Of a stretch of 64,000 nucleotides of DNA, positions 136-31,147 are shown one piece after another. The notes under the pieces were generated by a model that saw only the letters and a program-made list of their open reading frames with translations, had not been told where the DNA came from and ran no database searches. Position 1 is the stretch's first letter, and each line of letters opens with the position of its first letter. Source of the stretch: a virus; IMG/VR virus record IMGVR_UViG_3300045988_114464, positions 1 to 64,000 of that record; one strand, 5' to 3'. The position numbers and the translations under genes are program-made.

Positions 136-232
136 CTACTCTGCCCCCCCCAAGTCTCATTGAGGTTTGCATATTATACATATTGCTCAAATCCTTTCTG
201 AGAGCAATGAGAAGGAGGTGAAGGATAAAAAG
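136..232 (-). promoter_or_regulatory. G-tract leader element A
   Basis: Gene sense reads TTGCTCTCA-gaaaggat-TTGAGCAA hairpin, then ATGTATAATATGCAAACCTCAATGAGACTT-G8-CAGAGTAG-ATG. The plus-strand C8 is at 144-151, and the G run ends 8 nt before the start at 135. Confidence 0.7.
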
Positions 233-562
233 TCAAGACAAAGTGCCTAATTCAAGATACTTAAAATAGGGCGAAATTGAATTATTATAATAGTTTGCAA
301 CCTTGAAATGTCCCTCTCCGAAATAAAAATTTACCGAAGGACTATTTTCGTCAAAGCTCCCAAACGGGAACTCCACTACTTCCTTAAAAACACTCACTTT
401 ACCAATCATTACGCTGTTGTCGGTCATCATCAGCTTAAAATATAAACTTGCATCTGTTGTTGCAATTTTTACAACTGAGCTACCTTCTGCTACATCTTGA
501 TGAATAGCACTCTTAAAATGAATTGTTCCTTCTACACCCTTACCAGTTACAATCCCATCCAT
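233..562 (-). CDS. type-A small paralog (MDGIVTGK...YLELGTLS)
   Basis: 109-aa ORF. It shares the family N-terminus M-N/D-G/A-I-V and the C-terminal LE.GTL motif with 8964..9323 and 30648..31043. Confidence 0.7.
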   Translation of the reverse strand: MDGIVTGKGVEGTIHFKSAIHQDVAEGSSVVKIATTDASLYFKLMMTDNSVMIGKVSVFKEVVEFPFGSFDENSPSVNFYFGEGHFKVANYYNNSISPYFKYLELGTLS

Positions 563-720
563 CAGCCGACACTTCCCTTCATGCCAGCCATCTCATTGCT
601 CATATTAAATTTTAGGAGAATGCTAACGCATTGCCCCCCCCAGTCGAAACTGAGGTTGACTGAATGTTAAACATAATGTTCTCCTTTTTGTGTAGTTATA
701 TTTGAGCAATGAGTAGAGGG
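563..720 (-). promoter_or_regulatory. G-tract leader element B with mini-ORF 612..674
   Basis: AAAAAGGAG-6nt-ATG mini-ORF encoding MFNIQSTSVSTGGGNALAFS. C8 at 634-641. Bracketed by the 11-bp inverted repeat CTCATTGCTCA (592-602) / TGAGCAATGAG (703-713). Confidence 0.8.
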
Positions 721-1065
721 TTATTCTAATAATCCAAAATCCACCGAGGAAATATACAAAGACAGATTATTATTGTTAAAACCCAGACCAACATTTTCTA
801 TTCCTTCATTATTAGTATAACTTATGCTAAACGAAGGAGACCAGTCGCCTGAACTATTTCTAAAAGTAAAATAATTAGTACCTCTTAAAGTTTCATACTT
901 AAAAATGCTAATTTGTCCATATAAATCAACGATTTTAACATATGGTGCAATCCTGTCTATAAGAAAGTTAATATGGAACGTATTTAACGCATCGTCTTTA
1001 TATGATTTTTTACTCATGAATGTCAAAGCATTAGCAGTAAATGGCTTATTAACAATCCCATTCAT
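721..1065 (-). CDS. type-A small paralog (MNGIVNKP...SSVDFGLLE)
   Basis: 114-aa ORF with the family N-terminus. KIVDLYG resembles HLKIVDIDG and FLKIVDKL in other members. Confidence 0.7.
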   Translation of the reverse strand: MNGIVNKPFTANALTFMSKKSYKDDALNTFHINFLIDRIAPYVKIVDLYGQISIFKYETLRGTNYFTFRNSSGDWSPSFSISYTNNEGIENVGLGFNNNNLSLYISSVDFGLLE

Positions 1066-1217
1066 ACAGTCACCTGCTTTCGGTGACTCACATTGCTCAA
1101 ATATTCAGTTGTTAGGGAGTTATTGCCCCCCCAAGTGAAGCATAAGTTCACTCAGAGAAAACTTGATACGCATGGTATCACTCCTTGTTGTTTAATTGAG
1201 CAACGTGTGTGATGTAA
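1066..1217 (-). promoter_or_regulatory. G-tract leader element C with mini-ORF 1120..1173
   Basis: CAAGGAG-7nt-ATG mini-ORF encoding MRIKFSLSELMLHLGGQ. C7 at 1126-1132. Inverted repeat TTGCTCAA 1093-1100 / TTGAGCAA 1196-1203. GTCACC-gaaagca-GGTGAC hairpin just before the main ATG. Confidence 0.8.
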
Positions 1218-1583
1218 TTAGGATTTTAGATAGATGGCACAGCCACCTTGATTATAACCGTCACTTCTGGTAACTCTTATAGTGTCTGAATCGGTATCAA
1301 TAGTAATTTCTGTAATAGAAATGCTATCAATATTATGAGATTCTTCAAAAGACAAACGAGTAAAAGTTTTTGAAATTTTATTTACTTCAAAAATTGCTAA
1401 ACCCCAATAATAATAATCATAATTATTAGAATACCCGCTCATTACAATCATTTTAGAAATATCGGGGCTATATTGTTGATAAGCTGGGGTTTCATCATTG
1501 TGCTTAAATGCTATTATATTAGCAATATTATCAGCCGATAAATCAATTCCGACTTCAGCCAGCTTATTCACAATCCCATTCAT
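1218..1583 (-). CDS. type-A small paralog (MNGIVNKL...)
   Basis: ATG at 1583 preceded by AAGGGGG; the track used a GTG one codon upstream. Family N-terminus. Confidence 0.7.
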   Translation of the reverse strand: MNGIVNKLAEVGIDLSADNIANIIAFKHNDETPAYQQYSPDISKMIVMSGYSNNYDYYYWGLAIFEVNKISKTFTRLSFEESHNIDSISITEITIDTDSDTIRVTRSDGYNQGGCAIYLKS

Positions 1584-1752
1584 CACATGACCCCCTTACT
1601 TGCGTATAGGAGGTTGCCAATCCTGTTGCTCAAAGGAAAGGCGTTAATGACCATTAGAAGGTCAGAAGAACGCCCCCCCAAGTTAAAGCGAAGGTTCATA
1701 AATTTGTTCTCCTTTGTTTAATTTTGAGCAACATTAGATGGGTTAGATTGAT
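1584..1752 (-). promoter_or_regulatory. G-tract leader element D with mini-ORF 1583..1699 (currently stop/start-coupled)
   Basis: CAAAGGAG-9nt-ATG 38-codon mini-ORF (MNLRFNLGGRSS...ASKGVM). Its TGA (1583-1585) overlaps the main ATG as TGATG. C7 at 1673-1679. Inverted repeat TTGCTCAAA 1626-1634 / TTTGAGCAA 1723-1731. Confidence 0.8.
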
Positions 1753-2142
1753 TTATCCAAACACATAATAATGAACATTTTTTATTTGAGGGCTTTGATT
1801 ATTCAAATGAAAAGTTATTTTATTGTTTGAATAATCATAGTTCAAATTTTCTATGTCTATAGAAGAATATCGCACATAAGTTGGGTTGTCACCATCATAT
1901 TCATAAAGTCTATATGAAAACCCCGAAGTTGAGTTGAGTGGAATGAATTGAACAAATTGCGCTCTAATTAGCATAGATGACGGATTTGGAATAACCACTA
2001 CTGCCATCACTTGTGCGTCTGTTGGTAATGATTGAAAATCAAAAATAGGAAGTGATACTTCATGAATGTTACTTGAATAACTACCTTCAAATGAAAAACA
2101 TTTGTTTTGATTTACAAGTACAGGATTCACGACACCGTTCAT
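1753..2142 (-). CDS. type-A small paralog (MNGVVNPV...)
   Basis: ATG at 2142 preceded by AAGGGGGTGG. Lies 19 nt downstream of the type-B ORF 2162..2329, the same B-then-A pairing seen at 9346/8964. Confidence 0.65.
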   Translation of the reverse strand: MNGVVNPVLVNQNKCFSFEGSYSSNIHEVSLPIFDFQSLPTDAQVMAVVVIPNPSSMLIRAQFVQFIPLNSTSGFSYRLYEYDGDNPTYVRYSSIDIENLNYDYSNNKITFHLNNQSPQIKNVHYYVFG

Positions 2143-2161
2143 CAAGCCACCCCCTTAGGAG

Positions 2162-2329
2162 TTAACCGAAAGCTGTTAAAATATATCGAGTGCTTGATTG
2201 AACACCGTATACATATGCACGAATATAGTTGTCTGTGTAAGTGTAGTAGATGTCTGAAACATTTCCTATTATCGAACCCATGAGTCCTTTCTGAACTTGT
2301 GCAGGTTCTTGAATAATCTTTCCATCCAT
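2162..2329 (-). CDS. type-B small paralog, short form (55 aa), not in ORF track
   Basis: MDGKIIQEPAQVQKGLMGS... resembles MNGKIMGEPLQAQGL (1..135) and MNAKVMKEFVEQKNGL (9346..9669). SD is GGGAGGTGG. The track instead lists an overlapping 2142..2372 ORF in another frame. Confidence 0.55.
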   Translation of the reverse strand: MDGKIIQEPAQVQKGLMGSIIGNVSDIYYTYTDNYIRAYVYGVQSSTRYILTAFG

Positions 2330-2443
2330 TAGTACGCCACCTCCCGATGTTGCTCAACCGAGAGGTAAGCATCGGTGGGCTTACTTGGCGTATGCCCCCC
2401 CCCAGTTGCGGGGAGTTTTAGTCTTAATCATATGTATTTCTCC
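2330..2443 (-). promoter_or_regulatory. G-tract leader element E with mini-ORF 2381..2431
   Basis: TAAGGAG-8nt-ATG mini-ORF encoding MIKTKTPRNWGGAYAK. C9 at 2395-2403. Only the downstream TTGAGCAA half of the repeat is present (plus-strand TTGCTCAA, about 2350-2357). Confidence 0.75.
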
Positions 2444-2872
2444 TTACATATTGTCTACAATTTCATGCATCTTATCTTCTAAATGAATTGCAACGAACGA
2501 TAGTAACGCCCACGCAAAGCAAAAGAATAGATTGCACTGTCCAAAAAAGAAGGTAAATGGTAAATGGCTGTAGTCCCACACACCCATGTGTAAGATATTG
2601 TTCAGCACTACACCAGTCAATCCTTCAAGAACCGTGATAACCACAGTTCCAATTACTACTTGTTGCCATTGCTTGAATTGGCGCTTTCCTTCGTTTAGCA
2701 GTCCTACAATGACGAAACATAAGCCGCCGAGAACTGCCATAGTCCAGTTGGTTGGTTTACCCTTCCAGATGGTTTCGATGGCGAAGTAAAGCATACCTCC
2801 CATCACACCAAACAGCGCATGAACAAGTATTGAATTTAGTTTATGCTTCATGCTCATAATAATATTCCCCAA
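2444..2872 (-). CDS. integral membrane protein
   Basis: Four hydrophobic segments: ALFGVMGGMLYFAI, MAVLGGLCFVIVGLL, VVIGTVVITVLEGLTGVVL, FFCFAWALLSFVAI. Confidence 0.6.
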   Translation of the reverse strand: MGNIIMSMKHKLNSILVHALFGVMGGMLYFAIETIWKGKPTNWTMAVLGGLCFVIVGLLNEGKRQFKQWQQVVIGTVVITVLEGLTGVVLNNILHMGVWDYSHLPFTFFFGQCNLFFCFAWALLSFVAIHLEDKMHEIVDNM

Positions 2873-3551
2873 ATAATTCTTTCGCTTTATTTTGATAAGC
2901 TATTGACGCTTCTTCAGGAGTGTCAAAACTTCCTAAATGATAAGTAATTTTATTATGAGTAATTATCGCAATATATCGAGAACCTTTCTTTTGCACCCCT
3001 GTAAAACCCGAAGTATTATCACTTCGTTTCTTGCGATTCCAGTCATTTTGTTGTAACGAACAAATTCTTAAATTAGCTTTACGATTATCAGAAGGGTTAT
3101 GGTTTATATGGTCTACAAATTCTTTACTGTTTGATGGCTTCATTATCATTCTATGTAACTGTTTGAATTGTGCATTCGAGTCACCTGTAATAACATAACC
3201 TTTATTATTCATTACCCAACAAAAATCTTTTATTAAATCATAATCTTCCAAATCAAAATAAAAGGGAATATTTTGTTGATTTGTATAACCGATTCCAAAA
3301 TCACCTGATAAATCGTATTTATTATAAAGTTTGTTCTTACTTCTTGCCAATTCTTTTCTAAGACAACCGCACGATTGTTTTGTACCATCTCTTAGATAAG
3401 CACCGTCAACAATAATGCCTTTTTTACCGCAAGAACAATCACATTCCCAACGTGAGCGTGATTGACCAGAAGGCAAATAACGGTTCGATACTCTTCTTAT
3501 GACTTTTAACCGATTAAAAGTCATACCTGTCAAATCTTTAACTTTACCCAT
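2841..3551 (-). CDS. HNH homing endonuclease with AP2-like DNA-binding domain
   Basis: HINHNPSDNRKANLRICSLQQN (HNH) and GFTGVQKKGSRYIAIITHNKITYHLGSFDTPEEASIAYQNKAKELFGEY (AP2-like). Cys cluster WECDCSCG...CGC. Paralog of 5829..6584. Confidence 0.75.
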   Translation of the reverse strand: MGKVKDLTGMTFNRLKVIRRVSNRYLPSGQSRSRWECDCSCGKKGIIVDGAYLRDGTKQSCGCLRKELARSKNKLYNKYDLSGDFGIGYTNQQNIPFYFDLEDYDLIKDFCWVMNNKGYVITGDSNAQFKQLHRMIMKPSNSKEFVDHINHNPSDNRKANLRICSLQQNDWNRKKRSDNTSGFTGVQKKGSRYIAIITHNKITYHLGSFDTPEEASIAYQNKAKELFGEYYYEHEA

Positions 3552-4233
3552 TTAGTTTAGTTAAAACAGCTTCAATTTGCGCTGAAGCAGAAGATAGAAT
3601 AGATTCATATTGTTCTTGATAATTTGAAGGCAGTTGTGTATTCAAAATAATTGAACGAATTGTTTCTTTATCTTTGCTTTCGTTGACCCACTTTTTTAGC
3701 AAATTACATTTAGTTGTTAGAGCAGTAATTTTTTGCTCCATTGCTACATAAAGCGATACAATATCAGCCTTTGGATAAATCGCACATTCCTTGCCGTCAG
3801 CGTGATAAGGATATTCCTCAACGCCCATAACAACTGCATTGAAGATGTTGCCAATATTGGCTTGGTCGTTTGCTGTTAGGCTGAAATGTTCATCGCCGTA
3901 AGAAGTCTTAACGTCAACGCCAGCATAAATAGTCTGCTCAGTAGCATCATTGAGTGACTTAATAGCTTCTGCACGAACTTCTTCGATAGTCGGTTCGTAT
4001 GGTGTTGGCTCAACTTCTTCGTCTACATTGATATGAACAGCGTTACCTGTACACTTCCATACCTTGTAATCAGCCTTTTCATATGCTACCAGTAGCTTGC
4101 CATCATCAGAAGTGAACATTAGTTCGTTACCAAGTTCAATATCGTGATTGCCGTTAAGATACATGGTACATACCTTATCGTTCAGCATACCAGTTACATT
4201 GTTATATGTCTTGCCATTAGTTAGTAGTTTCAT
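3544..4233 (-). CDS. hypothetical protein (tail-fibre-associated by position only)
   Basis: 229-aa ORF whose start overlaps the stop of 4233..4631. No motif recognised. Confidence 0.5.
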   Translation of the reverse strand: MKLLTNGKTYNNVTGMLNDKVCTMYLNGNHDIELGNELMFTSDDGKLLVAYEKADYKVWKCTGNAVHINVDEEVEPTPYEPTIEEVRAEAIKSLNDATEQTIYAGVDVKTSYGDEHFSLTANDQANIGNIFNAVVMGVEEYPYHADGKECAIYPKADIVSLYVAMEQKITALTTKCNLLKKWVNESKDKETIRSIILNTQLPSNYQEQYESILSSASAQIEAVLTKLNG

Positions 4234-4631
4234 TACTGCACCTCACCTACAACTTGAACAACAAACCCTGATTGTGGAGCAGAATTACCGCTTGTAGTAA
4301 GAGTTAGTGTGTTATTGCCTGTCTGACCATAATCTGCAAGCAGAGCGAACGCGGCTTTTTCATTTGCCGCTGTTGCTGAGTCAGAAGATGGTAGAAGATA
4401 AATGATTGGCTGATAGCGCATTGTTTCAGCAAGACCTTGAATAGTCTGCGTCTGCTTGTAAACACTGCCTTGCTGTGTCCAGCCAGCTTTCGTAAAGGTT
4501 GCAGTACCGAACACTGTTTTACCAACTTCAAGGTTGGTTCGTGCTCCCAGCGCCGTAGTAGCGCCAGTACCGCCATCGGGGATTGAAACTGGGGTGGAAA
4601 TGCCCTGTCCCAGTATACCGCCAAAACCCAT
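4233..4631 (-). CDS. short tail-fibre-like protein
   Basis: The N-terminal SIPDGGTGATTALGARTNLEV resembles the GGTGA.T...AR.NLG motif common at N-termini of phage tail-fibre proteins. Has its own consensus promoter. Confidence 0.45.
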   Translation of the reverse strand: MGFGGILGQGISTPVSIPDGGTGATTALGARTNLEVGKTVFGTATFTKAGWTQQGSVYKQTQTIQGLAETMRYQPIIYLLPSSDSATAANEKAAFALLADYGQTGNNTLTLTTSGNSAPQSGFVVQVVGEVQ

Positions 4632-4738: not shown

Positions 4739-5878
4739 TTAATTATTCAGAATATCAATCGTCCGCGCTTCATACAGCTTTTGCCATGTCTGAAAATCGT
4801 GGTCTACTGCATTTTCCTTGCGCTCAAGCAGACCCAAGCTGTCCCACACAACATCAACTTGTGCAAGACCAGACCATAGTTCAGCTTGCTTCATAATTTT
4901 GTTGTTCCATTGCTCAAACTCTGCATCTGTACCGCCAGTAGCATCATTATCTACAATAAGGACAACATGATTAACGCCCAACTTTAGCAGTTGATTCCTA
5001 CGCTGTAAGCCAAGCTGTGAGCCAAACATAGCGACTGCCGTTGATTGTGAGCCAAGAAAACTATGCAATTTAAGCACAGCTTTCTCACTTTCGGCAATCA
5101 TTACAGTACCAGTACGCTCTATTTCATATTGGTTCTGTGCCAATCCATATAGAACCGCGTTAGTAGGGAACTTATAGATAGTGCCATCCAACAGTTGCAA
5201 AGGTCGATATTTACCATTTATTGCATTTTCACCCCAATACCTACAGCGAATCCCTACTAAATCATAGTTTTCATTAAACACAGGAATGGTCGTTCCCCAT
5301 TCTCGCCCATACCAACCGATACGAAACAAGGCTTGTGTTTCTTCACTTATACCCTCATCCACCCATGCTTGACACGGTGTATTGGGTATAGCGTCAAGAA
5401 TAGATGCGTCATAAGTTGGCAATAAACTACCGCCGTTTCGCACTGTAATGAACTTCTCAAGTCCAGACCAATCCGTGATATTGGGGTTGGCTACACGCTG
5501 AACTTGAGAAGATTCAATACCAGTAACGTCAAGAATGTAATTTACTGCGTCTACGAAAGAACAAGGTTGCTTTAGTAGAGATAATCGTGTTTGAACAAGA
5601 GAAATAATATCATAACTTCTTGATGCAGTATAACCACAATAAACATCAGTGTCTTTATAATAAACCAATTTTCCCGCTGACCCTTTATACGGGTCTACGT
5701 TTTTATCTCCTGTCCACCATTGAATTTCTGTTTTGTTTTCATAATACATTGGAATACCAAGAGATTTAAGAATTTTCTTATGGTTTTCACATGATAAAGA
5801 AGATTTTAATAATTTGGTATTTATCTTTTTATATCCCATATTCTTCAAACATAAAACTTTGTCCAGCAAAATCGCCAA
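4739..5878 (-). CDS. DNA primase (Toprim domain)
   Basis: MIAESEKAVLKL (Toprim Glu) and VVLIVDNDATGG (DxD). The start is uncertain; an alternative ATG at 5839 gives MGYKKINTK. Confidence 0.6.
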   Translation of the reverse strand: MAILLDKVLCLKNMGYKKINTKLLKSSLSCENHKKILKSLGIPMYYENKTEIQWWTGDKNVDPYKGSAGKLVYYKDTDVYCGYTASRSYDIISLVQTRLSLLKQPCSFVDAVNYILDVTGIESSQVQRVANPNITDWSGLEKFITVRNGGSLLPTYDASILDAIPNTPCQAWVDEGISEETQALFRIGWYGREWGTTIPVFNENYDLVGIRCRYWGENAINGKYRPLQLLDGTIYKFPTNAVLYGLAQNQYEIERTGTVMIAESEKAVLKLHSFLGSQSTAVAMFGSQLGLQRRNQLLKLGVNHVVLIVDNDATGGTDAEFEQWNNKIMKQAELWSGLAQVDVVWDSLGLLERKENAVDHDFQTWQKLYEARTIDILNN

Positions 5879-6584
5879 ACAATTCTTTTTCTTTTTTCAA
5901 TCTGGCAATTATAGCTTCTTCTTTTGTCTCATAATAACCCAAATTATAATATACTTTATCATATTCAATAAACGCGCCCCATTTATTGCAATTTTTATGA
6001 AAAAACACACCTATTATTCCCGATTTTCCTTGGGGTACTTTTCGATTCCAAGAATTTTCTTTAGGCAAGCATTTTCTTAAATTTTCTTTTTTGTTATTTT
6101 TTATGTTACCGTCTATGTGGTCAACAACAACTGATTCATTTGTAAGAGGAAAACTTTGTTTTTCAACTCCCATTACAAAACGATGAAAAGCTACTCTTTC
6201 ACCTTTGGTCAAAGAAAATAAATACCCATGACCATCTTCAGTCCAACAATAATCTTTAATTTTATTATAATCTTCATAATCAAAATAAAAAATATTGTTG
6301 CTATTGCTTGCGTATAAAAAACAATTATTTTTATCGGACAAATTATAAATATTATTTTTACGATGGTTTAATATTGTGCTTTCTTTCTGCAAGCATCCGC
6401 ATGATTGTGTAATTCCTTTTAATAAATTTCCAGAACTAATTTTTTTTATGGTGCGCTTTTCACAATCACATTGGCAAAGCCACATAGTCTTTTGTTGTCC
6501 TTTAGGGCTGACATAATTTTCCGCTCGTTCAAGAACTGTTAAACGTCCAAATTGTCGCCCAGTTAAATCCTTAAAATTACCCAT
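5829..6584 (-). CDS. HNH homing endonuclease with AP2-like domain (paralog of 2841..3551)
   Basis: VDHIDGNIKNNKKENLRKCLPKENS (HNH) and GIIGVFFHKNCNKWGAFIEYDKVYYNLGYYETKEEAIIARLKKEKELFG (AP2-like). N-terminus MGNFKDLTGRQFGRLTV parallels MGKVKDLTGMTFNRLKV. Confidence 0.75.
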   Translation of the reverse strand: MGNFKDLTGRQFGRLTVLERAENYVSPKGQQKTMWLCQCDCEKRTIKKISSGNLLKGITQSCGCLQKESTILNHRKNNIYNLSDKNNCFLYASNSNNIFYFDYEDYNKIKDYCWTEDGHGYLFSLTKGERVAFHRFVMGVEKQSFPLTNESVVVDHIDGNIKNNKKENLRKCLPKENSWNRKVPQGKSGIIGVFFHKNCNKWGAFIEYDKVYYNLGYYETKEEAIIARLKKEKELFGDFAGQSFMFEEYGI

Positions 6585-8963: not shown

Positions 8964-9323
8964 TTATTGTAAAGTTCCAACTTCAAGCGCACTTACATAA
9001 TTATATAGCGTATAGTCAGCACCGTCATAAATAAATGAAACGTAATCGCTACCTGATGTTGCGATATAACCGTTACCTTGTGGACTTCCATCACTATTAT
9101 AACAATATACTAAAGTGCCTGTTCTTGAATAACTTCCCAATACGCTAATTTTAAGAAATGTAATATTTCCATCAATGTCTACAATTTTAAGATGACATTT
9201 TGAAACTTCTTCAGAAGTTAAACTTTTGTCAGAATAATCTTGTGATAAACTCATTGAATATAACTTTTTCCAAGTCATACTTCCAATGGGTGCTTCTTGC
9301 TTACCAGAAATAATTGCGTTCAT
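8964..9323 (-). CDS. type-A small paralog (MNAIISGKQEAPIGS...ALEVGTLQ)
   Basis: Clear similarity to 30648..31043 (MDAIVSGKVEKPEGS, FLKIVD, SLEIGTL). Confidence 0.7.
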   Translation of the reverse strand: MNAIISGKQEAPIGSMTWKKLYSMSLSQDYSDKSLTSEEVSKCHLKIVDIDGNITFLKISVLGSYSRTGTLVYCYNSDGSPQGNGYIATSGSDYVSFIYDGADYTLYNYVSALEVGTLQ

Positions 9324-9345
9324 GCAATCACCCCTTTTCTGGTGT

Positions 9346-9669
9346 TTAGAAGAAGCCTACTGCGAAAACCTTGCTTGCATTGACTGAAGATAATTTTATA
9401 TTTTTCCCAGAAAATTTTACATAAAATGAACTGGTTTGTGAACTTTCCAAAGCGTAATACACATAGCAATTGTCTGGAAACCATGCTATATTCGCGCTGT
9501 ATGCTGTATTTGAAGTGTACTTTTGAGGACTCCAAAGTGTTAGGCTTACAAAACTCGGCGCTTGGGAAAAAGAAAGCGTGACTTCTTGTTGATAGACTGC
9601 TTTTTCGAGATACTCTGCCGTCAGCCCGTTTTTCTGCTCTACAAATTCCTTCATTACTTTTGCATTCAT
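9346..9669 (-). CDS. type-B small paralog (full length)
   Basis: MNAKVMKEFVEQKNGLTAEY...; homologous to the fragment 1..135. Followed 22 nt later by its type-A partner. Confidence 0.65.
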   Translation of the reverse strand: MNAKVMKEFVEQKNGLTAEYLEKAVYQQEVTLSFSQAPSFVSLTLWSPQKYTSNTAYSANIAWFPDNCYVYYALESSQTSSFYVKFSGKNIKLSSVNASKVFAVGFF

Positions 9670-9809
9670 TTAATCTGCCCCCCCCAACTCGCGCCAAGGT
9701 TGACAGATTACAGCTTACATCACCGTGTAAGCCCCCCCCAAGTGAAGCGGAGGTTTGGTAAATTGAACATATAAATGTCCTCCTTTAATTTATATTATGA
9801 GGAAATTCC
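9670..9809 (-). promoter_or_regulatory. double G-tract leader element F (F2 with mini-ORF 9720..9770, then F1)
   Basis: AAAGGAGG-8nt-ATG mini-ORF encoding MFNLPNLRFTWGGLTR. C8 at 9732-9739 (F2) and C8 at 9678-9685 (F1). F1 reads GTTGGGGGGGGCAGATTAA-ATG, like element A. Confidence 0.75.
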
Positions 9810-16199: not shown

Positions 16200-16274
16200 T
16201 GGCACAAGACTTAGGACTTTAACCTAAACGAACAGTTTTGGAGACTGTCATGCTAACAATTACATCAGTCTTGC
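16200..16274 (-). tRNA. tRNA-Trp (CCA)
   Basis: Hand-folded cloverleaf: acceptor GCAAGAC/GTCTTGT, anticodon stem ACAGT/ACTGT, loop CTCCAAA, T arm TTAGG-TTAAAGT-CCTAA, encoded CCA. Confidence 0.75.
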
Positions 16275-16277
16275 GTA

Positions 16278-16352
16278 TGGAGCGCTATGGCGTAATCGAA
16301 ACGCCATCTTCAGTTTGGAAAACTGAGGTTCTTACCATTAAACTAATAGCGC
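16278..16352 (-). tRNA. tRNA-Gly (UCC)
   Basis: Acceptor GCGCTAT/ATAGCGC, anticodon stem TCAGT/ACTGA, loop TTTCCAA, T arm GGCGT-TTCGATT-ACGCC, encoded CCA. Confidence 0.8.
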
Positions 16353-16468
16353 AAATCGCCCCGCGACCAAAAGGTACGTCATGCGCGCTTGACTTGTTTT
16401 CCACTGGGAATCGCAGTACAGTCATGGGCTAAACCGCAATAAGCGTGAACTTAACAAACGGGGAACAC

Positions 16469-16544
16469 TGGCAGGGATGGTGTGATTCGGACACACGAAT
16501 GTCGGCTTCAAAGACCGATGCCTTGACCGCTTGGCTACACCCCT
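16469..16544 (-). tRNA. tRNA-Gln (UUG)
   Basis: Acceptor AGGGGTG/CATCCCT, anticodon stem TCGGT/GCCGA, loop CTTTGAA, T arm GTGTG-TCCGAAT-CACAC, encoded CCA. Confidence 0.75.
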
Positions 16545-16701
16545 ATATTTCTCCTACGCTGACGAGACGCAGGAGAGAAATTAAATTGTATGCCGACACG
16601 TTTGAGCGTGTCTATTAAATTGTTTGTCTGCCGTACCAGACGGTGTGTGTGAGTGGAGTTTTTGCTCACGGACAATAAAATTTACCTTGTACGGAAGGCA
16701 T

Positions 16702-16777
16702 TGGTCTACCATCGCAGGCTCGAACTGCGGACTTCTTGATTAAAAGTCAAGTGCTCTACCAACTGAGCTAATGGTAG
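16702..16777 (-). tRNA. tRNA-Lys (UUU)
   Basis: Acceptor CTACCAT/ATGGTAG, D arm GCTC-AGTTGGTA-GAGC, anticodon stem CTTGA/TCAAG, loop CTTTTAA, T arm CGCAG-TTCGAGC-CTGCG, encoded CCA. Confidence 0.85.
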
Positions 16778-16945
16778 ATTTGATTGGGGCATATGCCCCA
16801 TCACTTATCGCAGATTGTAACGGTCTACACCGCGCATATTCTTCTGCATCTCAAGGTTTGCTTCATACAGACCACGGAAGAAATGCTTGATATTGCTCTT
16901 AACGCCCATTGGTTTCACTTCCTTTCTGATTACTTTAGTATTATA

Positions 16946-17575
16946 TCACATAACAACTAAGTTGTCAAGTGCTTTTTTAACTTTATTTTTCATTTCTTCT
17001 CGCTCTTTCTTAGAGTCATATCTCATGCGACAATAAGGGCGAGTGCCTTCTCTGTAATGTTTCTGCAAAATTCGTATTTGCTTATTTACCATTTCTTTAG
17101 AAACATCTAACTTATCAGCCACTTCTTGACACGTTTTACATTCTGTTAGCTTTGCGTATATGACTTTAAGCATAGCAGTCGAAGCATACTCGATAAACCA
17201 ATCAGCCCAATCTTTACCAGCAACATATTCTTCATTCTTTGCGCCACTGTCAATAACAGCTTCAAGCGGTACATCTTCATTATAGACGGTTTTAACTTCA
17301 GTGTTCAATGAAATAACACGACTATCATTGCGCTTCTTTGCTAACTGAGTGCGCTTTGCCTTTTTTACTTCATTGTGCATACAGTAATAAGCAAATGTAC
17401 TAAAGCGGTTACTGCCATCATAAGCCATACCAGCCTTGCACAAACCAATAGCACAAATGTCATACCATGTGTTGAAGTCAAGTTTATACTTTGTTAAGAA
17501 GCCGTAGATTAAATCGTGATTATCTTCGACTAATTTCTTCTGCTCAGTATTTAATTTGATATTTGGCTTGCTCAT
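16946..17575 (-). CDS. sigma-70 family sigma factor
   Basis: Region 2-like DLIYGFL...DICAIGLCKAGMAYDGSNRFSTFAYYCMHNEVKK and a region 4-like HTH TCQEVADKLDVSKEMVNKQIRILQK. Confidence 0.7.
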   Translation of the reverse strand: MSKPNIKLNTEQKKLVEDNHDLIYGFLTKYKLDFNTWYDICAIGLCKAGMAYDGSNRFSTFAYYCMHNEVKKAKRTQLAKKRNDSRVISLNTEVKTVYNEDVPLEAVIDSGAKNEEYVAGKDWADWFIEYASTAMLKVIYAKLTECKTCQEVADKLDVSKEMVNKQIRILQKHYREGTRPYCRMRYDSKKEREEMKNKVKKALDNLVVM

Positions 17576-17774
17576 AACAGTTGTTTCCTTTAGTTTGAAA
17601 TAATGGAGCGAATGACGGGTACTGCCCCCGCGTCCTCAGTTTGGGAAACTGAAATTCTACTATTGAACTACATCCGCATATGATAACAGGGAATGAGTTA
17701 GAAAGAAGGTATGTCAAAAGAAGGAGAAAAAATCTCATTCCCTGCTATTTATTTATATTTGTTATGCTTAGAAG

Positions 17775-30647: not shown

Positions 30648-31043
30648 TTAAGTTGTTTCAAGTGTTCCTATTTCTAATGAACTAATACAGTTATTTATAT
30701 CACTTAAAGTATTATTTAGCTTAAATGCTAAGTGCCATCCATTATATGAGTAATAACAACTAATTGCTGTTCCATATCCAGCGTCCCCATATCCAGAAGC
30801 ATTGCCATCATGCAAGTAAAAAGCAGGGATGGTAACTGTATTAGAATAAGAAGGTAAGTGGTTTATCGCAATTAAAATTATAGATTGTAGTTTATCTACA
30901 ATTTTCAAAAAATGTGTATCATAATCATGTTCTGAAATTAGTATTTCATCATATGTGGAAACAAATTTATAATTATTGTTTACCTTAAACACGCCCAAAC
31001 TTCCTTCTGGCTTTTCAACCTTACCACTCACAATAGCATCCAT
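30648..31043 (-). CDS. type-A small paralog (MDAIVSGKVEKPEGS...SLEIGTLETT)
   Basis: ATG at 31043; the track used a TTG two codons upstream. Closest relative is 8964..9323. Confidence 0.7.
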   Translation of the reverse strand: MDAIVSGKVEKPEGSLGVFKVNNNYKFVSTYDEILISEHDYDTHFLKIVDKLQSIILIAINHLPSYSNTVTIPAFYLHDGNASGYGDAGYGTAISCYYSYNGWHLAFKLNNTLSDINNCISSLEIGTLETT

Positions 31044-31147
31044 CAGCAATCACCACCTTTCGGCAGTTGATTACTTAACCAATGCCCCCCCCAAGTGGCG
31101 AGGTAGTTTGATAATGCTAAATGTTCTCATAGGGAACACTCCTTTTC
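31044..31147 (-). promoter_or_regulatory. G-tract leader element G with mini-ORF 31071..31130
   Basis: AAAAGGAG-8nt-ATG mini-ORF encoding MRTFSIIKLPRHLGGALVK. C8 at 31085-31092. Confidence 0.8.

Follow-up and report, generated by a model that had tools for sequence, protein, structure and literature searches.

Length-variable poly-G leader modules upstream of small paralogous genes in a human gut phage, a candidate translational switch

Poly-G modules before two small-protein families

The first 2,443 bases of IMG/VR virus record IMGVR_UViG_3300045988_114464 carry, on the minus strand, a row of small genes separated by modules of ~100-170 nucleotides (nt), each with a run of seven to nine G residues. 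Positions 1 to 64,000 of the record were analysed and are referred to here as the window. The window holds eight G7-G9 runs, every one on the minus strand and every one placed before a member of one of two small-protein families, family 1 and family 2 (Table 1). Shuffled sequence would give 0.81 matches to G7; the window has 15, a count that none of the shuffles attained. The five plus-strand C runs named in the initial annotation of this DNA are all present as minus-strand G runs, and the further copies that it reported at 9.7 kb and 31.1 kb were found, all of them G8. As a correction, the unit at 9.7 kb (unit F) has two tracts, F1 in its leader open reading frame (ORF) and F2, from which 8 nt lead to the main ATG. 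The DNA is that of a phage, encoding a portal protein, an exonuclease, a Sak4-type annealing protein, DnaB and a primase, with a lysis cassette in relatives, and the source samples are human gut metagenomes. Runs and assemblies that contain this phage are ERR13252809, SRR10682089, SRR1535377, SRR10692441, ERR1136711, ERZ27260741, ERZ28646366 and ERZ18707876.

Family 1 proteins are ~110-130 amino acids (aa) long and begin M(N/D)(G/A)I(V/I), while those of family 2 begin MNGKIMGE or MNAKVMKE. Identity between paralogs is ~20%, the conserved ends being M(N/D)(G/A)I(V/I) and LE.G.L. The main genes of these families in the window contain no G run of at least six, the type of coding tract reported in Campylobacter phages. 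Searches of Pfam, PHROG and PDB gave no match to the families (0 matches in the PDB profile search), and family 1 is very small, with 32 clusters among 5.8 billion proteins, all unnamed. An AlphaFold2 model built from 38 sequences is all-beta at low confidence (predicted local distance difference test 54), and a Foldseek search with it against BFVD returned nothing at E <= 0.001. For the phage as a whole, megablast against GenBank phages (INPHARED) gave 0 matches and blastn gave short HNH-gene matches only; DnaB has no relative among 185,579 GTDB genomes.

Read in gene sense, the modules share the consensus AACCTC-N7-8-(A)CTT-G7-9-C(A/T/G), with a variable C/U-rich part. This corrects the motif first proposed, AACCT(C/T)...ACTT followed by a run of 7-9 G and CA. 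The same AGGAG-ATG module was said to precede every unit, and generally it does, except that module A lacks a canonical AGGAG. There, AAAGGA is combined with three in-frame ATGs, and 8 nt separate the G run from the main ATG. The leader peptides are as originally translated: MFNIQSTSVSTGGGNALAFS, MRIKFSLSELMLHLGGQ, MNLRFNLGGRSS... (38 codons) and MIKTKTPRNWGGAYAK.

Modules C and D are also bracketed by an 8-nt inverted repeat, TTGCTCAA...TTGAGCAA, as is module B with ATGAGCAA as its 3' arm. The 5' arms lie at 702-709, 1196-1203 and 1724-1731 and the 3' arms at 1093-1100, 1626-1633, 2350-2357 and 183-190 (minus strand). The repeat forms a local hairpin upstream of module A, and it pairs the end of a gene with the region before the next ribosome-binding site; it may be a processing site or act in coupling across the module. 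A reading of TTGCTCAA/TTGAGCAA as the ends of a miniature inverted-repeat transposable element was rejected; the only conserved parts of the interior are the functional motifs, and in the leader RNA the repeat forms the outer stem.

Reading frames and tract lengths

Frame tracing of modules A-E, as given in the initial annotation, was reproduced exactly by script. A frame that ends on the main start is called coupled, or ON, here, and the other two OFF. In the single-tract modules, one frame ends on the main start (TGATG, ATGA or TAATG) and the other two stop ~3-19 nt past the tract. This arrangement of one coupled frame and two early stops is present in B, C, D, E and G, in F1 of relative L016 and in H1 of relative L018, and the third frame is open for 13-30 codons up to the main start. 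Module D (G7) is coupled now, its leader staying open for 38 codons and ending TGATG on the main start. Modules B, C, E and G as observed stop 7-19 nt past the tract, and one G more or fewer would couple each of them: B (G8) ends TGATG on the main start at G9 (or at G6), C (G7) ends ATGA at G6 or G9, E (G9) ends TAATG at G8, and G (G8) ends TGATG at G7. The frame of module A (G8) passes the main start, and G7 gives TAG-ATG and G9 gives ATGA. The claim that each uncoupled unit is a single G away from coupling is thus borne out for B, C, E and G, and for A at G7 or G9. In every module a change of tract length shifts the leader frame and the position of its stop, and in every module the open frame has a stop/start overlap or abutment (TGATG, ATGA, TAATG or TAG-ATG). 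As also described initially, the three genes that start with MD have T(G/A)A at position -2. Fusion of leader and main ORF was considered and rejected, with the main frames closing 1-2 codons upstream of their own ATG. At unit F, a 125-codon alternative-frame ORF at 9320-9697 (minus strand) spans the whole family 2 gene at 9346-9669 and is entered from leader F1 at G7; it is unusually long for DNA of 38% G+C.

The layout was compared with chance in two samples. In the clade of the window phage, spacers were shuffled with dinucleotides preserved and the start context fixed. The chance of any frame ending on the main start was 0.20-0.51 per module in these shuffles, and a coupled frame is present in 7/7 single-tract module types (product of the shuffle probabilities 2.5e-4). 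A wider scan of IMG/VR with the pattern AAGGAG-N4-10-ATG-N15-45-CTK-G7 gave 103 loci, many of them in phages unrelated to the window phage and with other downstream genes. Of the non-redundant leader-type modules whose spacer exceeds 12 nt, 27 out of 31 have a coupled frame, here a frame end within 6 nt of the main start, versus 8.6 expected from shuffles (binomial tail ~8e-12). Of 52 OFF frames from 26 modules, 41 reach a stop no more than 15 nt past the tract, versus ~18 expected, at a shuffle rate of 0.34 per frame (tail ~5e-11), and like the other p-values this one overstates independence because paralogous modules share ancestry. The coupled frames and early stops therefore point to a three-frame device, with two frames trapped and one open to the next start.

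About 20 related contigs, found by DNA-pattern and protein look-ups, are 83-100% identical to the window where aligned. Comparison of tract lengths in related genomes, which the initial annotation had called for, demonstrated variation from G6 to G9, with coupled frames in several genomes (Table 1). Many relatives of 93-96% identity have a different length at an orthologous tract, and the module G orthologue in the contig of L017 (locus L043) is G9. Contig L025 (ENA ERZ27260741) has 0 substitutions relative to the window in 11,065 nt, the sole insertion or deletion being one G in tract C. Contig L026 (Logan ERR1136711) has the same one-G difference over 1,680 nt; tract C is G8 in both, and the two come from independent studies. 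The predicted ON sets are D in the window, C and E in L017, B, C and D in L021, and D and E in L023. States predicted by the initial frame tables are encountered in L017, where C (G9) and E (G8) are coupled and D (G8) stops early, the opposite of the window. The D spacer of L023 has a 6-nt insertion that leaves the coupled frame intact. Where the frame is open, in ON-state contigs, gene callers report leader ORFs of 37-38 aa abutting the main genes. Contig L026 starts exactly at tract D, and contig L022 (1315-1330) ends 8 nt past a C tract; such assembly breaks are expected if tract length is mixed within a sample.

The runs are nearly pure. Of ~100 module copies from relatives, a single one has a broken run (GGGGAGGGG) and four carry G6, in one case followed by T. 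As first remarked for the window, the glycine codons form a pure G run in relatives too, which do not interrupt it with synonymous glycine codons. GGG is the rarest glycine codon in long ORFs (7%), and codon preference therefore does not account for the pure run.

Table 1. Positions of the poly-G tracts, leader modules and genes discussed (window coordinates unless a locus is named), with tract lengths in relatives. SD, Shine-Dalgarno sequence.
Feature	Position	Strand	Description	Tract lengths in relatives
Tract A	144-151	minus	G8 (plus-strand C run)	6, 8, 9
Tract B	634-641	minus	G8 (plus-strand C run)	8, 9 (B-type)
Tract C	1126-1132	minus	G7 (plus-strand C run)	7, 8, 9
Tract D	1673-1679	minus	G7 (plus-strand C run)	7, 8 (mostly G8, early stop)
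Tract E	2395-2403	minus	G9 (plus-strand C run)	8, 9 (G8 in L017, L023)
Tract F1	9732-9739	minus	G8	6, 8, 9
Tract F2	9678-9685	minus	G8	8, 9
Tract G	31085-31092	minus	G8	
Tract H2				7, 8, 9
Module A	136-208	minus	Local hairpin ATTGCTC/GAGCAAT 208-182; in-frame ATGs 181, 172, 160; C/U-rich arm; G8; main ATG 135-133	
Module B	563-709	minus	5' arm TTGCTCAA 709-702; SD AAGGAG 686-681; leader ORF 674-612; hairpin 0 CCUCAGU-UUCG-ACUGGGG; G8; hairpin 1 GGGG-CAAUGC..GCAUU-CUCC; 3' arm (A)TGAGCAA; hairpin 2 with main SD in loop; main ATG 562	
Module C	1066-1203	minus	TTGCTCAA 1203-1196; SD 1186-1181; leader ORF 1173-1120; G7; TTGAGCAA 1100-1093; hairpin containing main SD AGGUGA; main ATG 1065	
Module D	1584-1731	minus	TTGCTCAA 1731-1724; SD 1714-1709; leader ORF 1699-1583 (38 codons); G7; TTGAGCAA 1633-1626; CCUCCU/AAGGGGG hairpin over main SD; main ATG 1583	
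Module E	2330-2445	minus	SD AAGGAG 2445-2440; leader ORF 2431-2381; hairpin CUCCCC/GGGGGG; G9; TTGAGCAA 2357-2350; CCUCUC/GGGAGG hairpin over main SD; main ATG 2329	
Module F	9670-9790	minus	Two tracts; SD AAAGGAGG; leader ATG 9770; F1 G8; hairpin; F2 G8 8 nt before main ATG; main ATG 9669	
Module G	31044-31145	minus	SD AAAAGGAG; leader ORF 31130-31071; G8; hairpin over main SD; main ATG 31043	
Family 1 genes	233-562, 721-1065, 1218-1583, 1753-2142	minus		
Family 1 genes elsewhere	8964-9323, 30648-31043	minus		
Family 2 genes	1-135 (partial), 2162-2329	minus		
Family 2 gene elsewhere	9346-9669	minus		
Weakly tail-fibre-like genes	4233-4631, 3544-4233	minus (4233-4631)	DUF4376 and PHROG family "tail fiber"	
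PF21939 arrays	L048 1-4600, L120 7000-10900, L032 1900-4500, L111 300-3400, L118 8300-11660	module strand	In other phages	

RNA structure and the proposed switch

The intergenic RNAs have fold z-scores of -3.1 to -4.0. An RNAalifold consensus from an alignment of nine B-type modules contains three hairpins. In hairpin 0, the first four G residues of the run pair with the upstream CCUC-type arm around a UUCG loop, and in hairpin 1 the last four pair with the downstream CUCC; each is marked by two compensatory pairs. The third hairpin carries the main Shine-Dalgarno sequence (SD) and has one compensatory pair. The CCUC/GGGG hairpin, which had been offered as an alternative reading of the modules, is thus present with compensatory changes; it is a component of the same module and not a competing explanation. 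Predicted mean unpaired probability at the main ribosome-binding sites is 0.31, versus 0.49 in 39 control genes of the window (Mann-Whitney p = 0.003), and the main SD lies in predicted stems in C, D, E and G and in a loop in B. The B-type modules (557-726 on the minus strand and orthologues in L017-L021) are mosaics, in that hairpin 0 and spacer variants re-assort between genomes; hairpin 0 is either CCUCAGU/ACUGGGG or CCCUGAC/GUUGGGG. The conserved pieces of the cassette may serve as recombination junctions for the shuffling of paralogs.

A scan of the modules for promoters and terminators gave no consistent matches, which makes control at the level of translation plausible. A promoter for each unit, an SPO1-type AGGAGA -35 box and a terminator were rejected on that scan. 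With Rfam 15, only transfer RNAs (tRNAs) reached gathering scores in the window, and nothing better than E = 6 was found at 1-2600 in a scan at E <= 10. No small RNA family was detected by Rfam, with pairing examined in cis only.

On the strength of the sequence comparisons, in which each prediction of the switch checked at this level held, we moderately favour the view that the modules are a heritable, reversible translational switch in a portable leader cassette. We infer slippage of the polymerase on the G run during phage DNA replication, which would add or remove one G. The strong SD of the leader would load ribosomes onto the mini-ORF. With the frame open, these ribosomes would pass through the structured spacer and unfold the hairpin; having terminated on the main start they would reinitiate, and the main gene would be well translated (the ON state). 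In the other two frames they would drop off a few codons past the tract, ahead of the inhibitory structure, and the main site would remain sequestered, giving an OFF or low state. Because each paralog has its own tract, a phage population is proposed to carry many combinations of paralog expression.

Several observations weigh against this interpretation. All main genes have an SD of their own (noted earlier for D, E and G), which in B lies within a hairpin loop, and a substantial part of translation may be uncoupled. The same motif is placed 8 nt ahead of the main ATG in modules A, F2 and H2, without a canonical leader before it in A, and the tract there resembles a ribosome-binding site more than a frame switch; the tract of A probably doubles as such a site, and the F2 run probably acts as one. 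Contigs L025 and L026 agree at 6/6 shared tracts, indicating that switching is not fast enough for every consensus to differ. Enrichment of the ON state among assemblies was looked for and not found (~30% ON); with ~70% of consensus states OFF, close to what unselected lengths would give, there is no sign that ON is favoured. Homopolymer errors may affect some assemblies, and the shared ancestry of paralogous modules tempers the p-values given above.

Four other explanations were weighed. The G run could be a structural RNA element with incidental frames, namely an arm common to two stacked hairpins (CCUC..GGGG and GGGG..CUCC) that act in messenger RNA (mRNA) processing or stability, as a ribosome standby site, or in SD-like tuning by pairing in cis, with a C/U-rich RNA or with the 16S anti-SD; changes of length would then be tolerated or have a rheostat-like effect. 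The two compensatory pairs in each of hairpins 0 and 1, the fold z-scores and the motif 8 nt before the main ATG in A, F2 and H2 (only A being without a canonical leader) are consistent with this, as is the variable G-repeat of a Helicobacter pylori mRNA leader, which pairs with a C/U-rich RNA (PMC8295292). However, a hairpin arm needs no homopolymer, and GGAG would pair better with CUCC, yet ~99% of copies hold unbroken G. A GGAGGAGG-type sequence would replace the run and preserve both hairpins, and GGAGGTGG would be a broken run that preserves the frame. A structural role also leaves unexplained both the open frame ending on the main start (27/31 vs 8.6) and the paired early stops, it has no Rfam match, and we regard it as unlikely. 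Non-heritable recoding, in which the ribosome or RNA polymerase slips on the run and the tract sets a ratio so that a fixed fraction reaches the coupled frame, would fit the three-frame layout equally well. G GGG GGG is formally slippery, the G run is SD-like, a hairpin follows the homopolymer directly in this clade and in most unrelated modules, and GGG is a rare codon here. No spacer separates that hairpin from the run, which it abuts or contains, whereas classical -1 frameshift sites have a hairpin 5-9 nt downstream of the slippery site. Length differences are moreover present in the DNA itself, between relatives and between otherwise identical genomes, and as the sole explanation recoding has a small chance of being correct; ribosomal or transcriptional slippage could coexist with a switch.

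Glycine-decoding attenuation would have two to three rare GGG codons stall the leader ribosome and remodel the hairpins to expose or hide the main site. GGG makes up 7% of glycine codons, any frame through the run yields GGG codons, the phage encodes tRNA-Gly(UCC), and the flanking alternative hairpins resemble attenuator designs. Against this, tract lengths are not multiples of three, their phase relative to the leader ATG varies by module, no terminator follows, and the two-frame stop traps with an open third frame are left unexplained, which makes attenuation improbable. The tRNA-Gly(UCC) can read GGG by wobble. The mini-ORFs could, finally, be ordinary small genes packed against the next gene, the glycine codons being incidental and the length differences being assembly or sequencing errors. 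Open frames are indeed annotated by gene callers as 37-38-aa products, phage genomes often have stop/start overlaps, and homopolymers are error-prone. But leader peptides share only the G-encoded glycines across modules, ~70% of assemblies would hold a broken gene, an ordinary gene would not be expected to have stop traps in its two other frames, and independent studies repeat the same tract lengths (L025 and L026 both have G8 at C). We consider this explanation very improbable.

The cassette in other phages and comparison with known systems

The gene cluster sits between the weakly tail-fibre-like genes and, in relatives, an endolysin/holin cassette; the endolysin has an SLH domain. The 132-aa protein encoded at 4233-4631 (minus strand) has the N-terminus GGILGQ...IPDGGTGATTALGARTNL and matches tail-fibre PHROG families weakly. 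A protein with a similar N-terminus in an unrelated phage locus (L034) is itself behind a G10 leader module. In other phages the cassette precedes arrays of PF21939 Gp10_C baseplate/tail-type proteins, a 415-aa internally repetitive protein and many unassigned genes. The PF21939 arrays, from unrelated large gut phages, comprise six to seven small genes in which a G8-G10 run encodes a conserved C-terminal GGGQ motif ~70-80 nt before the stop. Leader-type G-tract modules are interspersed among these coding tracts, and a frameshift brings the C-terminus of some copies to an end precisely on the start of the next gene. A role of the gated proteins in host interaction is our guess.

Elsewhere in the window, HNH/AP2-type endonuclease genes at 2841-3551 and 5829-6584 (both minus strand) are shared with L025, missing at the corresponding positions of L018-L021, and resemble homing-endonuclease insertions specific to a lineage. 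A LAGLIDADG intein is present in the DnaB of L019, and a TnpB-like ORF lies at 16782-17891 in L016. A tRNA cluster at 16200-17677 (minus strand) comprises Trp(CCA), Gly(UCC), Gln(UUG) and Lys(UUU), with a fifth, at 17607-17677, identified by Rfam only.

The switch proposed for the window may be one instance of a wider class. We give about even odds to a widespread, portable "three-frame" cassette of gut phages, with a strong SD-ATG mini-ORF, a hypermutable G7-G12 tract flanked by hairpins, two frames closed by stop traps and the third leading to the next start. Such a cassette would act as a reversible, heritable switch for each paralog, produce combinatorial repertoires, probably of host-interaction proteins, and constitute a new mechanistic class of phase variation, in which a repeat tract controls translational coupling. 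If so, human gut phages would possess a compact, transferable device that toggles genes at mutation-like, reversible rates with the protein sequence untouched. It would be a third route to phenotypic diversity in phages beside retroelement mutagenesis and DNA inversion, a diversity generator distinct from diversity-generating retroelements, invertible segments and coding poly-G tracts, and would explain the persistence of arrays of small paralogs. One consensus genome would hide many expression variants, which bears on host-range prediction and phage therapy. G-run mini-ORFs upstream of genes would have to be annotated as regulatory and not as frameshift errors, and engineers would have a ready-made stochastic translational switch.

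Full-text literature searches found no account of a coupled upstream mini-ORF that carries a repeat tract. Poly-G/C contingency loci are classical in bacteria, where they lie in genes or promoters of Neisseria, Haemophilus and Campylobacter. The likeness to these loci drawn in the initial annotation holds for both tract length (G6-G9) and polymorphism in very close relatives. Shared features are a G/C homopolymer of at least 7, differences of +/-1 between close relatives, a predicted frame-dependent ON/OFF logic and several loci per genome. Here, in contrast, the tract lies outside the regulated gene and its promoter, in a separate upstream mini-ORF and within conserved RNA hairpins, and the carrier is a phage.

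Campylobacter phage poly-G tracts reportedly lie inside receptor-binding-protein coding sequences, a finding attributed to Sorensen et al. 2021. Hypermutable poly-G tracts in Campylobacter phages are also mentioned in a passage of PMC12823448 that cites earlier reports. Here as in the Campylobacter phages, a phage-encoded poly-G tract is proposed to diversify progeny phenotype, whereas the main genes of the window families are tract-free, a cassette stands before each paralog, and the host group differs, the phage being of gut Firmicute type. For coliphages T2 and T4, homopolymer slippage has been proposed as bet-hedging (Gomez, Barrick and Waters, bioRxiv 10.1101/2025.10.21.683753). Unlike the modules described here, the runs in that work are mostly short (at least 6 nt), inside ORFs and gene-inactivating; translational coupling is not mentioned there, and its few intergenic repeats are not treated as leader ORFs (bioRxiv 10.1101/2025.10.21.683753).

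In the tlpB mRNA leader of H. pylori, a variable G-repeat targeted by the C/U-rich small RNA RepG sets downstream translation (PMC8295292). The window modules likewise have, in a 5' leader, a G run of variable length whose pairing partner is C/U-rich RNA, but the pairing is in cis, in two covarying hairpins, and the run is translated in a mini-ORF with frame logic. Leader ORFs of the erm type are an established example of coupling through a leader. The MS2 coat cistron provides translational coupling with a structured downstream ribosome-binding site (PMC5934652). As in MS2 and erm, an upstream ORF runs through an inhibitory structure and ends at or on the next start codon; coupling in those systems is constitutive or drug- or metabolite-dependent, whereas in the gut phage modules it would depend on the length of a mutable tract.

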